Shown in pieces: positions 6,684 to 22,288 of a stretch of DNA of 25,940 nucleotides. The position numbers and the translations under genes are program-made. Source of the DNA: Candidatus Bathyarchaeia archaeon (GTDB taxonomy: Archaea > Thermoproteota > Bathyarchaeia > Bathyarchaeales > Bathycorpusculaceae); contig JBEKKX010000036.1 of assembly GCA_050010515.1 (NCBI GenBank), positions 1 through 25,940 of the forward strand. The letters run 5' to 3'. The notes below the pieces were generated by a model, which saw only the letters and a program-made list of their open reading frames with translations, was not told the DNA's origin and did no database searches. Numbering within the stretch: the first letter of the stretch is position 1; each line of letters opens with the position of its first letter.

Positions 6684-6804
6684 GCTGCGGTAACCAAGCC
6701 AGGTCAAAGGTGAAGGACTCAAGATCGACGCTTTGACTTGAGCGCCCGAATGGGAAATCCTTTCCCGTAGGGGTTCGCAGGTTCGAATCCTGCCCGCAGC
6801 ACCA
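6684..6804 (+). tRNA. tRNA-Leu(CAA) with 33-nt intron at canonical position 37/38 (intron 6724-6756); CCA encoded
   Basis: Acceptor GCTGCGG/CCGCAGC + A + CCA; D-arm ACC...GGT; anticodon stem AAGGA/TCCTT with CT-CAA-G; long variable arm; T-arm GCAGG-TTCGAAT-CCTGC; BHB-like central helix CTCA/TGGG with 3-nt bulges AGA and AAA. Confidence 0.95.
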
Positions 6805-17921: not shown

Positions 17922-18479
17922 TTACATGTAAATTTTTAGAGTCTTGCTTTTTTGCAGTAGGAAGATTGCAAATGCACAGATTATAATGCTTGGCACCATG
18001 TAGATTCCGTTGTATACTGCGGAGTAAACGATTGGGCTCATGCCTGGCGGTGCGTACTGGGGAAAATAGATTACGCCTGAAGTAAAGTGAGACATGAAGC
18101 GTGCTGTACCGCCTACTACTACACCGATAACCGGACCAGCAACTGTAAGTTTTCGGAAGAATCCTGCAAGTCCAAGACATGCAAACGCTAATGGATAATC
18201 AAGAATGAATTGAGCAGGGTTAACAACGAAAGGCTCAATCGCAAGGTCAACTACGCCAAGCACGGCGCCTGCAAATATACCGATTTTTGGTCCTCTTCTA
18301 AGCGCCAGCCAAAAGATAGGCACCATCCCAAGGTTAATTGTCCCTCCTTGTGGCATGACGAAGAAGGAGTGGCTAACCAGAGCTAACGCTCCTGCCATTG
18401 CGACAAATACAATTATTTCTGCAAGTATCTTGGTTGAAAAAATACTATTATTTTTAGTCAGCTCAGTTTGTTGTTTCAT
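17922..18479 (-). CDS. thiT: ECF transporter S component ThiT (thiamine)
   Basis: MPQGGTI, LALRRGPKIG, QFILDYPLAF, RFMSHFTSGVIYF, YSAVYN. The real ATG is at 18479; the ORF-track extension to 18608 is the riboswitch. Confidence 0.92.
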   Translation of the reverse strand: MKQQTELTKNNSIFSTKILAEIIVFVAMAGALALVSHSFFVMPQGGTINLGMVPIFWLALRRGPKIGIFAGAVLGVVDLAIEPFVVNPAQFILDYPLAFACLGLAGFFRKLTVAGPVIGVVVGGTARFMSHFTSGVIYFPQYAPPGMSPIVYSAVYNGIYMVPSIIICAFAIFLLQKSKTLKIYM

Positions 18480-18483
18480 TTTT

Positions 18484-18575
18484 TTCCCTCCGCCAGTATT
18501 ATCTGGTTCAGGTTCTAAGGGTCGACAGCACTTAGCCGTCCTCTCAGCCGGGTCATTCTCCCAGCTCCCCGAGAA
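18484..18575 (-). promoter_or_regulatory. TPP riboswitch (THI element)
   Basis: Minus strand TTCTC-GGGGAGCTGGG...CCCGG-CTGAGA-GGACGGCTAAGTGCTGTCG-ACCCTTAGAACCTGAACCAGATAATACTGGCGGAGGGAA: all core TPP motifs, immediately 5' of the thiT ATG. Confidence 0.93.
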
Positions 18576-18719
18576 CTGTTTGAAAGAATTATTGCTGTTT
18601 CGTTGCATATTAGTTTTTCTAAAGCGTTGGTTTCAGCTGTTATTTGCTAAGAAGCATCGTTTTTTTTCGTTTGGTGGAAATGTAAAAATTAATTTACTCG
18701 TAAAATATTTCAGTAATTT

Positions 18720-19685: not shown

Positions 19686-20297
19686 CTATGTTATCCCTTT
19701 CTTTGTCTTAAGTTCCCTTATTCGAGCAGGTCTAACAAAAACTTCATCAAGTAATTCCGAAGTGAATTTTAGAATTTCCGAAGCATCCTCAAGTGTTACA
19801 TCTCTTAAAGGATCGTTTTGTGGGTGTGCACCCCAGTTACCAATCATTCTAATAGTATGTGCCATATCTTTTAGAGTTGGATTGATTATTCTTTTTGCTT
19901 CAAGTTCATCTATTTGGTCAATTAAATCAGCGTTTGGTGTCCCTTTTAACAAGCACGTGGTTTGCATTGCTCTTCGACACTGTGTCACTGTAGCTTTAGA
20001 AGCTGAAATGTTTTCACACTTGATTGCTTCTATAAGATCATCTGCTACTTCTTTTGGAATCGCCTCATTTACATTTGGTATTAAGCGTGGGTAATAATCA
20101 GTGATACTTTCTAATTCAACTATTACAGTCTGAGGATAATCCTCTTTTATATTCCAACTGTCAGGGACTTCAAAGTAAACAGGTTTTGAACATCCATTGC
20201 AATTTAGAACGAACGCACGATTTGACCCTTTCCCAAAAAAAGAGCATTTAGTGTGGCAATGCGGACACATGAAAGACTTAATGTAAATTGATGCCAA
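19686..20297 (-). CDS. DUF4145 (HEPN-like) protein with N-terminal zinc ribbon
   Basis: CPHC...CNGC; DLIEAIKC...ATVTQCRRAMQ...LIDQIDEL...IRMIGNWGAHP typical of DUF4145. Confidence 0.85.
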   Translation of the reverse strand: MASIYIKSFMCPHCHTKCSFFGKGSNRAFVLNCNGCSKPVYFEVPDSWNIKEDYPQTVIVELESITDYYPRLIPNVNEAIPKEVADDLIEAIKCENISASKATVTQCRRAMQTTCLLKGTPNADLIDQIDELEAKRIINPTLKDMAHTIRMIGNWGAHPQNDPLRDVTLEDASEILKFTSELLDEVFVRPARIRELKTKKGIT

Positions 20298-20444: not shown

Positions 20445-21233
20445 TCAAAGTTTAATTGAAGAAAAGAAAGAATCTAATTCTATCTTAAGATCTTCACTCG
20501 ACTCATAACTTCGATATTCAATTCCTTTTAAATCCACTGGGACTTCAGACTCCTTATCTTTTATGAGAATAACACTTTTCCCTAAACCGTACGCTAGCCC
20601 CAACTCAAAGAGCACATTTGCGTTCCAGCCAGTTATATTCATAATAGCATATTTAGATTCTTGCAGATGCTCACAAATCTTACATAAAATATCTATGTTG
20701 TCGAAATCCTCATCTGCTTTCCAGCCTTTAAGACGATATTTCTCCAAAACTGGTCGTATGCCGTGTCTATAAGAATCATCAAACTTTGCTCTAAAAGGCA
20801 TTCCAATAAAAACTTGACGTGGATTGACCGCGATCTCTTTTGAACATAGAGCACCCATTTTAAAGCAATACGGTTTAGATTCTAAAGTAGGTCGGTTCAT
20901 TAGGGCTTGCACCTTTTCTTTGATAAATGGAATATCCCTTTTTTTAAGGTCGTCTGCATTATTGCCCATCCATTCAAAATTATCCTCGTCAAAATATCTT
21001 TCAACGAACATAAGATGCCGATTGAAATTAGAGAATGTCTCATCATAGAACTCTAAGGGCAACATATCTTTTAATGTATCAGTAGCTAGTTTCAATTTCT
21101 CGATTTGAGGTTTTATTTCATTCTTCTTTTCATGCTTAATTGCTAAAATCAAAGCATCTACGCTATCTTCTGTTTTATCAACCAGTTTTATGGTAGATAT
21201 TAGCGAGGACATAGAAGTCATAGTAACATACAA
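20445..21233 (-). CDS. Nucleoside 2-deoxyribosyltransferase-like / TIR-like domain protein
   Basis: C-terminal VFIGMPF...KADE...ILCKICEHLQESKYAIMNITGWNANVLFELGLAYGLGKSVILI...VPVDL; N-terminal helical domain unassigned. Confidence 0.8.
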   Translation of the reverse strand: MYVTMTSMSSLISTIKLVDKTEDSVDALILAIKHEKKNEIKPQIEKLKLATDTLKDMLPLEFYDETFSNFNRHLMFVERYFDEDNFEWMGNNADDLKKRDIPFIKEKVQALMNRPTLESKPYCFKMGALCSKEIAVNPRQVFIGMPFRAKFDDSYRHGIRPVLEKYRLKGWKADEDFDNIDILCKICEHLQESKYAIMNITGWNANVLFELGLAYGLGKSVILIKDKESEVPVDLKGIEYRSYESSEDLKIELDSFFSSIKL

Positions 21234-21459
21234 TCAAGCATTAAACATTTCTTCTTACAATGAACAAATGTAGGCATCTTTCGTAATGCATTACCTTGGC
21301 TAATTCCACTTCCAGTTTTCACACACTTACTAAAAAGTTGCCAAACAAACCGAAAATCATCATTTTTCGATATCTTCCTCAACCAGATCATTCTACTAAA
21401 CTATCGCCAGTCTTATTTAGGTGAAATGTTCAAATAGGAAATGCGCGCTAATCGAAAGC

Positions 21460-21534
21460 GCTGGAATGGTGTAATGGAAGCACAGCCAACGATTGGCAGG
21501 CTAGGCGGGTCCGATTCCCGCCACCATTCCACCA
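21460..21534 (+). ncRNA. Non-canonical tRNA-like RNA (tRNA mimic or pseudo-tRNA)
   Basis: Canonical D-arm TG-GTGT-AATGGAA-GCAC-A, stem GCCAA-CGA-TTGGC, T-arm GCGGG-TCCGATT-CCCGC, 3' CCACCA-TT-CCACCA; GC-rich within AT-rich DNA; TATA-like TTCAAATA at 21429-21436. Confidence 0.6.
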
Positions 21535-21559
21535 TATTGGTCATGAGTTGGGCAGTCTT

Positions 21560-22288
21560 ATGGACAATAATTATGTTTATCATTGCGAAAATCTGCGGAT
21601 GATAGAAAAAGCAATAACTAATGTCGAATTGGCTTTAAGGGACTATATATCCCTCAGCGACAATGCTAATACTCAAATATACACTCGAGTCCTCTCCCAA
21701 TTAGTCAACAGTTGGGTTGAAGTAAGATTACTTAAACTCGTTTATGAGCCAGATGCGTTTTCAGATGATAAGAAAGGCAAAATTATAACGACCTCACGTT
21801 TGGAAGATCAATGGAGAAGTGCACTCGACTGTGCGTTCTGTAAAGCGTTTTCCTTAAAGGATATTACAAAAATATCTTCCCCAAATGTTCGATATACCGC
21901 TCGAAAGCAGTATGAAGCAGTAAAGCAACTTATTGAAAAAGACCTTTTAGCGTCTTCTGAGGTGCGGAATAGAATAGCTCATGGTCAATGGAGGTATGCT
22001 TTTACTTCAGACTTGCAAAAAATCAATCCAGATCTAATGCGTGACATAAATAAGGAAAATATTCTAGTTTTACAATTTAGATTAGCTCTATTCAGAAGTC
22101 TATCTCAAATTATACATGACCTGGCGGTATCAAAAAAAACCTTTGAAAGAGACTTTGACAATAATTTCAAAAAGATAGAATCTCAGATAGTTAATGCAAA
22201 AAAGGTAAGTTTTACTGTGTACCAACAAAAAATGGTTAGAAAGAAACAAAGAGGGATTATTAAGAAAACTCAGAACCTTAAAACTTAA
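21560..22288 (+). CDS. HEPN-domain putative RNase
   Basis: N-terminal helix LVNSWVEVRLLKL and intact Rx4H motif EVRNRIAHGQW; ATG 21560 (alternative TTG 21548). Confidence 0.72.
   Translation: MDNNYVYHCENLRMIEKAITNVELALRDYISLSDNANTQIYTRVLSQLVNSWVEVRLLKLVYEPDAFSDDKKGKIITTSRLEDQWRSALDCAFCKAFSLKDITKISSPNVRYTARKQYEAVKQLIEKDLLASSEVRNRIAHGQWRYAFTSDLQKINPDLMRDINKENILVLQFRLALFRSLSQIIHDLAVSKKTFERDFDNNFKKIESQIVNAKKVSFTVYQQKMVRKKQRGIIKKTQNLKT

Follow-up and report, generated by a model that had tools for sequence, protein, structure and literature searches.

A 25,940-nt stretch of DNA from Candidatus Bathyarchaeia archaeon (assembly GCA_050010515.1, contig JBEKKX010000036.1, positions 1 to 25,940 of the forward strand; this whole stretch is called the window below) carries a small RNA element shaped like a transfer RNA (tRNA) without its anticodon loop, directly followed on the same strand by a gene for a HEPN-like protein, a putative ribonuclease (RNase). 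The element ends 25 nt before the ATG of the open reading frame (ORF) at 21560 (Table 1). A sequence-only reading of the window had singled out this pair as a candidate RNA-decoy or antitoxin module. The pair recurs far beyond the window: its presence in well over 100 unrelated bacterial and archaeal hosts suggests a module of RNA and protein, hitherto undescribed, that serves in defence or as a toxin-antitoxin pair. Computation shows how the RNA is structured and conserved, that it is linked to the gene, that no partner protein accompanies it and that an alternative fold exists.

The sequence details listed in the sequence-only reading are all found by direct reading of the window. The tRNA landmarks U8, A14 and G18G19 correspond to T21467, A21473 and G21476-77, and the D-stem pairs GTGT (21469-72) with GCAC (21480-83). 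The sequence GCCAA-CGA-TTGGC (21485-97) forms a 5-bp stem with a 3-nt loop, the T-loop reads TCCGATT (21510-16) and the 3′ end carries CCACCA-TT-CCACCA (21521-34). Position 55 is a C in the window, as it also is in loci L049 and L122. The 75-nt element that had been drawn from 21460 is real, but the family consensus places its 4-bp acceptor 5′ strand at 21462-65, and G21460 and C21461 are assigned to a small GC hairpin (21445-21461). Likewise, the CCACCA end is present in the window, but a terminal CCA is not a family-wide trait, since bacterial members mostly continue with AAAG at this point.

The 91-nt stretch that contains the element has a folding z-score of -3.47, and none of 200 shuffles is as stable. 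ARAGORN makes no tRNA or transfer-messenger RNA (tmRNA) call at the element, either in the window or in the whole genome with intron mode, where it places 45 tRNAs elsewhere. At gathering thresholds, Rfam has no match at the element, and its only matches elsewhere in the window are a thiamine pyrophosphate (TPP) riboswitch and a tRNA with an intron. A search in E-value mode ranks tRNA-Sec first at the element, with 22 bits against a cut-off of 47. Two covariance models were built for the family: R1 from 59 elements aligned with MAFFT, for which a cloverleaf-like structure was written by hand, and R2 from metagenome loci alone, with the window excluded. R1 scores the window element at 58.9 bits and R2 at 62.4 bits (E = 2.3e-13 over the whole 2.38-Mb genome). 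The next-best R2 match in this genome reaches 24.3 bits and lies at an ARAGORN-called tRNA-Cys. The element is single-copy, with neither a second copy nor a direct repeat found in the 2.38 Mb.

Table 1. Features of the module and of its neighbourhood in the window (positions counted from the first letter of the window).
Feature	Position	Strand	Basis or remark
TATA-like box CTTATTTA, candidate promoter	21412..21419	+	23 nt upstream of GC hairpin; read by eye
GAAATG-TTCAAATA, candidate from the sequence-only reading, alternative promoter	21423..21436	+	would start RNA at about 21460
5-bp GC hairpin GCGCT / AGCGC, 7-nt loop, abutting acceptor 5′ strand	21445..21461	+	fold -6.1 kcal/mol
Anticodon-less tRNA-like RNA	21462..21534	+	covariance-model scores, fold z-score, family covariation
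tRNA-like element: acceptor 5′ strand	21462-65(66)	+	family consensus
tRNA-like element: D-arm	21469-83	+	
tRNA-like element: capped hairpin, 3-nt loop	21485-97	+	
tRNA-like element: variable region	21498-21503	+	
tRNA-like element: T-arm, 6 bp, loop TCCGATT	21504-22	+	
tRNA-like element: two alternative acceptor 3′ strands	21523-26 and 21527-31	+	
242-aa all-alpha HEPN-like protein, putative RNase toxin/effector	21560..22288	+	motif, helical model, predicted dimer
RNRIAH (Rx4H) motif codons	21965..21982	+	read from window; invariant in alignment
TIR-like protein, C-terminal TIR/CAP12-like domain	20445-21233	-	PADLOC TIR effector 1e-9; Pfam 1.1e-5
DUF4145 / PD-T7-4-like protein	19686-20297	-	PADLOC PD-T7-4 8.4e-8

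From 208 relatives of the gene in the genome collection, 80 loci were retained; their hosts span many bacterial phyla and also include Methanosarcina, Methanolobus and a Bathyarchaeia metagenome-assembled genome. A short-word BLAST with the window element matches the D-arm region in about 30 loci, at some 100-140 nt before the gene, and a T-loop pattern occurs within 300 nt upstream in 74/81 loci, accompanied by a D-loop pattern in 61/81. With R1, a same-strand upstream match is found in 76 of the 80 genome loci (75 at E≤0.01), so the homologous genes do carry the element, at a distance of 16-242 nt from the start codon. Scores range from 54 to 91 bits in the main clade and from 22 to 38 in a distant clade, and true tRNAs in the same loci reach 16-34 bits. 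R1 misses L087, L100 and L101, and L089 has a match on the other strand only. No other locus has its only model match downstream of the gene and on the opposite strand; the match in question (L089:3650-3726, minus strand, 37 bits) receives no tRNA call from ARAGORN. An independent metagenome set has the element in 76/80 loci, and the remaining four have less than 100 nt of upstream sequence. In the two sets combined, the element is present in 152/160 loci, in unrelated hosts and on a constant strand.

The sequence-only reading had also considered that the element might occur unlinked to such genes. Five large gene-bearing genomes each have one R1 match of at least 69 bits, located at the gene; these elements score 69-80 bits, whereas host tRNAs and all other R1 matches stay at or below 35 bits, and nine sampled among the latter are tRNA-Gly, tRNA-Thr and tRNA-Arg. 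A further 150 genomes of one class yield a single match at E≤1e-7 (43.8 bits), which is a true tRNA-Gln(CUG) without a gene homologue beside it. Clustering of 1646 ORFs from 77 loci shows that only the HEPN-like gene recurs (76 loci), which agrees with the earlier observation that no protein antitoxin is adjacent. Of the refuting outcomes named in the sequence-only reading, none that computation can address was seen. For this nuclease-like family, a non-decoding RNA with the shape of a tRNA is an obligate partner.

The consensus RNA consists of a 5′ GG, a 4-bp acceptor helix, an unpaired A, U8, a 4-bp D-stem with the loop AAUGGAA, a short hairpin, a variable region of 6-7 nt, a 6-bp T-stem with the loop UUCGAUU and the acceptor 3′ strand. 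In the genome set (69 rows), 95.4% of the cells are paired and 14/17 pairs show compensatory changes; in the metagenome set (69 distinct rows), these values are 97.5% and 13/17. The covariation score, computed like these values on alignments that were fitted to the model and are hence biased toward the structure, is 0.613 against 0.200 for shuffled alignments in the genome set (slid controls at most 0.159) and 0.565 against 0.180 in the metagenome set (slid controls at most 0.150), with 0/500 shuffles reaching the observed score in either. RNAalifold on a plain MAFFT alignment had already recovered the acceptor and T-stems, with 8/12 pairs compensated.

The positions involved in tertiary contacts in tRNA are invariant or nearly so among 59 sequences (T12, G16, T17, A18, A19, G21, G22 and GGT.C.A.TCC), and so are the tRNA hallmarks U8, A14, G18G19, T54-Ψ55-C56 and A58. 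The arm at the place of the anticodon arm is of a different kind. Across 69 elements, its loop has 4 nt in 42, 3 nt in 17, 6 nt in two and 5 nt in one, with seven unresolved; none has a 7-nt loop, which bears out the earlier claim that the RNA is unlikely to decode. The 42 tetraloops include 22 of the GNRA and eight of the UNCG type. A 7-bp acceptor stem with discriminator and CCA is not found in the family either: there are four covarying pairs, and AAAG comes next in 42/70 bacterial loci. The RNA keeps the parts that build the tRNA elbow and drops the part that decodes.

Some distant members have upstream elements that are much closer to ordinary tRNAs (L096:3880-3964, L088:445-528, L062:3841-3921 and L114:2310-2407), which may reflect descent of the mimic from a genuine tRNA gene. 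Among 17 related loci checked, the Rfam tRNA threshold is passed only by L096 (38.4 bits) and L062 (36.8 bits), and no other Rfam family, the abiF motif included, reaches its gathering threshold at the elements of the window or of these 17 loci. Locus L118 is the sole multi-copy locus, with tandem tRNA-like elements (L118:1170-1252 and L118:1375-1456; 44.3 and 32.5 bits) upstream of one homologue. Evidence for a mimic of tRNA-Gln in particular is mixed, and no such claim is made. ARAGORN labels two bacterial elements tRNA-Gln(UUG), and the D-arm of the window element is nearest to the two tRNA-Gln genes of its host (local scores of 13 and 10 over the first 32 nt, the lower tied with tRNA-Cys at 10). 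The one match from the 150 further genomes, the only other one above 40 bits, is likewise a tRNA-Gln(CUG). By contrast, the top-scoring ordinary tRNAs in five other genomes are tRNA-Gly (four genomes) and tRNA-Thr (one).

In bacteria, the 3′ flank has its own order: the AAAG is followed by a stem-loop, a short U-run and a repeat of the acceptor 5′ strand. This repeat is an exact 4-nt copy in 53/70 bacterial loci, and TTT precedes it in 39. When the region is folded alone, all four acceptor 3′ bases pair downstream in 63/70 loci compared with 337/1400 shuffled controls, and in most loci the downstream strand also captures 3-6 bases of the T-stem 3′ strand. The minimum-energy fold of the whole leader is a long hairpin, not the tRNA-like fold, in 65/70 loci (at least three acceptor 3′ bases paired), and the hairpin ends at most 13 nt from the start codon in 45/70. 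The segment from -14 to -5, where ribosomes would bind, has a mean pairing of 0.69 in the hairpin fold versus 0.51 in the tRNA-like fold (64 loci); pairing is higher in the hairpin fold in 38 of these, the same in 15 and lower in 11. Bacteria thus conserve two folds that exclude each other. Archaeal-type loci are without a competing hairpin, and an oligo-T run comes right after the RNA in 4/5 of those in the genome set.

The start of the RNA had been placed at 21460 on the basis of a combined B recognition element and TATA-like motif, GAAATG-TTCAAATA. This motif is present, but the 5′ end and the choice of promoter are uncertain, given a second TATA-like box further upstream, CTTATTTA. Because the GC hairpin sits between this box and the acceptor strand, the likely transcript start shifts upstream, and the sequence suggests that the 5′ end of the window RNA may lie at about 21443 rather than 21460. 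The box is spaced 23 nt from the GCGCGC start both in the window and in its nearest relative, L143, and in the archaeal relatives L028, L029 and L039, TTTAAATA or TATAAATA precedes the acceptor strand by about 25 nt. For the GC hairpin, 11/200 shuffles fold as low; GC hairpins of -6 kcal/mol or lower also occur in L143, L119, L120, L122 and L127 and are a trait of the subgroup nearest to the window, not of the family. When the 70 bacterial loci are lined up by their acceptor strands, information upstream is confined to TT at -37/-36 and T-A...T at -13 to -8, the latter being the best -10-like signal. The pattern TAnnnT starts between -18 and -8 in 42/70 bacterial loci, and 36/58 such sites start at -13/-14. 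The conserved GG of the bacterial loci coincides with the predicted transcription start.

The intact HEPN motif noticed in the sequence-only reading, RNRIAH, is confirmed in the translation of the gene. In an alignment of 41 family members, R136, N137, H141, G142 and Q143 are invariant (RNxxxHGQ; RN.(I/L)(A/S)HGQ). A clustered protein collection contains 111 homologues, nearly all without a name, and a representative library gives 446 cluster representatives at E≤1e-10; one homologue is named HEPN_MAE_28990 in UniRef. The AlphaFold2 model consists of helices throughout, with a predicted local distance difference test (pLDDT) value of 92.7. A homodimer is predicted with a score of 0.77 against 0.00 for the best control, residues 140-146 lying in the interface; between runs, at least 92% of the contacts agree, at a pLDDT of at least 88, and the mark used for this score is reached by 20/30 solved homodimers and 1/23 solved single chains. 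The window protein has no match in Pfam or PADLOC. Leads from the protein atlas are weak (HEPN_RiboL-PSP, 0.88; HEPN_Apea, TM 0.32). Three true HEPN_MAE_28990 proteins, from 301 genomes, share the RN.IAHG motif and the following ..HDLAV helix with the family, and a search with PF18737, the Pfam model of HEPN_MAE_28990, of genome G042, which holds a family member, gave no match. The protein is called HEPN-like because of its motif, an assignment that is reasonable, not proven.

Within the window, the module is flanked by the gene for the TIR-like protein and by that for a class I aminoacyl-tRNA synthetase, and no MNT gene adjoins it. Neither the HEPN-like gene nor the RNA element was found in 40 related genomes that were searched for both. 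This absence and the adjoining defence-type genes suggest that the module sits in a small, variable defence-type island. Elsewhere it travels on mobile DNA. In Escherichia coli NH-21, the whole module lies in a prophage, with an RNA of 68.9 bits at which no feature is annotated; prophage carriage of the entire module is seen in two complete E. coli genomes. In Raoultella, it is found on a conjugative IncFII plasmid, with an upstream element that is more tRNA-like and scores 20 bits. The module is found in about 1% of the genomes sampled.

Partial homologues are also seen: in 296/5426 complete E. coli genomes, a homologue is reduced to its 3′ half, with about 97% identity to the Serratia gene, and in six lambdoid Escherichia phages just the C-terminal 105 residues are present. 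In Lambda_4C10, the phage record inspected, the fragment lies beside sitABC and an integrase, with no tRNA-like element nearby. The partial homologues of E. coli and its lambdoid phages are gene remnants. Two other RNA features occur in the window. A TPP riboswitch (18468-18581, minus strand, 64.4 bits) lies upstream of a Thia_YuaJ thiamine-transporter ORF (17922-18608, minus strand), which is followed by an AIR-synthase-related ORF. A tRNA-Ser(CGA) gene (6684-6804, plus strand; Rfam tRNA, 44.4 bits) has an intron of about 33-36 nt in the anticodon loop and is found by ARAGORN with intron mode; this intron-bearing tRNA and the TATA-like promoters point to an archaeal genome.

On balance, the module is probably of a type III-like kind, in which the RNA would be a non-cleavable tRNA pseudo-substrate and the antitoxin of a HEPN-like RNase. 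The role as decoy or antitoxin is drawn by analogy, and we infer the transcription of the module, the binding and inhibition of the nuclease, its substrate and the part played in defence. A tRNA-shaped RNA of about 75-90 nt and the HEPN-like ribonuclease would share their direction of transcription and a promoter located immediately 5′ of the RNA. The nuclease dimer would recognize the tRNA shape, and the mimic would occupy the dimer as a pseudo-substrate that cannot be cut, since the target loop is missing. If synthesis of the RNA stopped or the RNA were destroyed, for example during phage infection, the nuclease, now released, could cleave tRNA of the cell or of the phage, or other RNA. In bacteria, the 3′ strands of the acceptor and T-stem can pair instead with the strand downstream, so that only a short, terminated or processed RNA would keep the tRNA-like fold; in the read-through mRNA, this fold would be undone and the ribosome-binding region partly masked, leaving toxin translation low. 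This two-state leader may add a second layer that holds toxin translation low, or it may be the main function.

Several observations weigh against this proposal. The acceptor helix has just 4 bp, so tRNA-like recognition is an assumption, and tandem repeats, the hallmark of type III antitoxins, are absent from 151/152 element-bearing loci, which have a single element, two being present in L118. Over the full leader, the hairpin fold is more stable than the tRNA-like one by about 15 kcal/mol (median, 64 loci), a preference equally compatible with a purely cis-acting switch. The bacterial hairpin is at most a possible intrinsic terminator: a consensus scan makes no call in 2/2 loci (L038 and L070) because the U-tract is short, with 3-5 nt in most bacterial loci. 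The window itself has neither the hairpin nor an oligo-T run. As for the protein, Foldseek against the Protein Data Bank (PDB) and VIA-align, with the whole model and with the C-terminal domain, return only generic helical hairpins and bundles and rank no solved HEPN structure, and a PDB sequence-profile search finds nothing specific. The PF18737 (HEPN_MAE_28990) model matches just 1/41 family members (E = 0.0028) and not the window protein, and hhalign against true MAE_28990 proteins aligns only 12 motif columns, with a probability of 24.6%.

The RNA could instead be a purely cis-acting, bistable 5′ leader, whose tRNA-like fold leaves the ribosome-binding region free and whose long hairpin masks it, with no antitoxin action in trans. 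Such a switch would tune the translation or stability of the nuclease mRNA, perhaps in answer to a factor that binds the tRNA shape. This explanation is unlikely, although much of the bacterial evidence fits it: both folds are conserved and mutually exclusive in 65/70 bacterial leaders versus 24% in shuffled controls, the hairpin is favoured by a median of 15 kcal/mol and pairs more of the ribosome-binding region (0.69 vs. 0.51), it is not called a terminator in the two loci scanned, and a predicted start at the 5′ end of the RNA makes the RNA the leader of the mRNA. However, archaeal-type loci, including the window, keep the element without a competing hairpin, so the switch is not the conserved core. 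The difference in masking is modest and is reversed in 11 loci, two alternative helices alone do not require invariant D-loop and T-loop tertiary nucleotides, and a toxin without an antidote would be hard to maintain.

A positive role for the RNA is harder still to credit. In one form, judged quite unlikely, the RNA would be the sensing or targeting subunit of a ribonucleoprotein immune effector, serving as bait for phage factors that handle tRNA (repair, modification or cleavage) or as a dock to tRNA-binding machinery, and the two-state leader would trigger release of the nuclease and new toxin translation. In another, considered very unlikely, it would be a positive subunit that forms a tRNA-shaped particle with the dimer, targeting or activating the enzyme by docking or acting as a bait that triggers the nuclease on modification or cleavage by a phage factor. 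The nucleotides of the tRNA elbow are recognition surfaces for tRNA-binding machines, and their conservation in the RNA, the strict one-to-one linkage without any other partner and the conserved single-stranded GG and AAAG flanks would all suit such a subunit. Nevertheless, its docking partner is purely hypothetical, the 4-bp acceptor helix and the lack of a CCA end in most members make delivery in the manner of a charged tRNA unlikely, and an active nuclease that is always assembled would need another safeguard, of which none is conserved. Finally, a decayed tRNA gene or an att remnant of an integrating island, placed beside the gene by chance, is an extremely improbable explanation of the element. 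The module does lie in a strain-specific island, its D-arm is closest to the two tRNA-Gln genes of the host, and the distant L096 and L062 pass the Rfam tRNA threshold. Against a remnant stand the element's matching distance and strand in 152/160 loci of unrelated hosts, the recurrence of D-arm and T-arm sequences across phyla, the compensatory changes that maintain a covarying fold, the gap between host tRNAs (at most 35 bits) and the element (69-80 bits) and the lack of a second copy or direct repeat in the genome; RNA-seeded searches argue against the linkage as an artefact of locus choice.

The preferred antitoxin reading resembles known systems in part. In type III toxin-antitoxin systems (ToxIN, CptIN and TenpIN), an RNA gene lies immediately upstream of the endoribonuclease toxin on the same strand, with one promoter, a structured element in between and no protein antitoxin. 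These systems occur on mobile elements and in defence contexts, and their antitoxins are tandem direct repeats that the toxin processes into pseudoknotted RNA assemblies. Like them, the module has an RNA directly upstream of the gene, on the same strand, and no protein antitoxin. It differs in having one copy per locus (two in L118), a cloverleaf-like fold and a HEPN-like protein rather than one of the ToxN/AbiQ fold. Parts of a tRNA are also retained in the tRNA-like domain of tmRNA and in the bacterial Y-RNA-like YrlA, which keep a T-arm and an acceptor-like helix and have lost or replaced the anticodon arm. In contrast to these, the element has no ARAGORN tmRNA call or Rfam match, its partners are not SmpB or Ro60, and it has no CCA end or aminoacylation features. 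The tRNA-like domain of tmRNA is mentioned in one paper (PMC11090510).

The closest experimental precedent for a toxin with an adjacent structured noncoding RNA is AbiF(Cd)/RCd22. AbiF(Cd) of Clostridioides difficile is reported to be a prophage-borne toxin of the Abi_2/AbiD/F family that is neutralized in cis and in trans by direct binding of the adjacent noncoding RNA RCd22, and the authors link this toxin structurally to ancestral Cas13 (10.1101/2025.04.15.648962). The Abi_2/AbiD/F family is counted among the HEPN nucleases in the 2013 HEPN survey (Anantharaman et al., 2013, PMC3710099). Unlike AbiF(Cd) and RCd22, the proteins described here have no Abi_2 Pfam match, and their RNAs have no abiF-motif match and mimic tRNA. 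In defence against phages, according to the survey, PrrC and RloC cleave the anticodon loops of tRNA (Anantharaman et al., 2013, PMC3710099), which makes a tRNA-shaped inhibitor plausible. The Rx4-6H nuclease motif is common to the family, to PrrC and RloC and to the HEPN-MNT system (HepT/MntA). However, PrrC, RloC and HepT are restrained by an ABC ATPase domain, a partner from restriction-modification or an AMPylating MNT protein, and the module has no such domain or neighbour. HEPN_MAE_28990 (PF18737) has the RN.IAHG motif and the ..HDLAV helix in common with the family, although the Pfam model fails to detect the window protein, and the survey, the only paper found to name MAE_28990, gives other neighbourhoods for it (PMC3710099). 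The module, which combines a tRNA-mimicking RNA, the proposed antitoxin, with a HEPN-like putative toxin, is covered by no Rfam, Pfam or PADLOC family searched. The literature covered, which excludes most subscription journals and supplements, yielded no paper that connects a tRNA-like RNA with a HEPN gene.

If the RNA is indeed an antitoxin, the module would be a widespread but rare RNA-protein toxin-antitoxin or defence system in which the antidote mimics the presumed class of substrate, tRNA, minus the part that can be cleaved, and would thus offer a natural minimal design of an inhibitor for a nuclease presumed to read tRNA shape. The element would then define a structured RNA class that is new, missing from Rfam and without annotation in RefSeq genomes, and would give a handle on what an uncharacterized HEPN-like family recognizes. 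The module is directly testable, since complete E. coli genomes carry it whole. Should the RNA be a sensing or targeting subunit, bacteria and archaea would have a surveillance by tRNA mimicry in common. As an antitoxin, it would be one RNA solution shared by bacteria and archaea, with expression signals specific to each domain.

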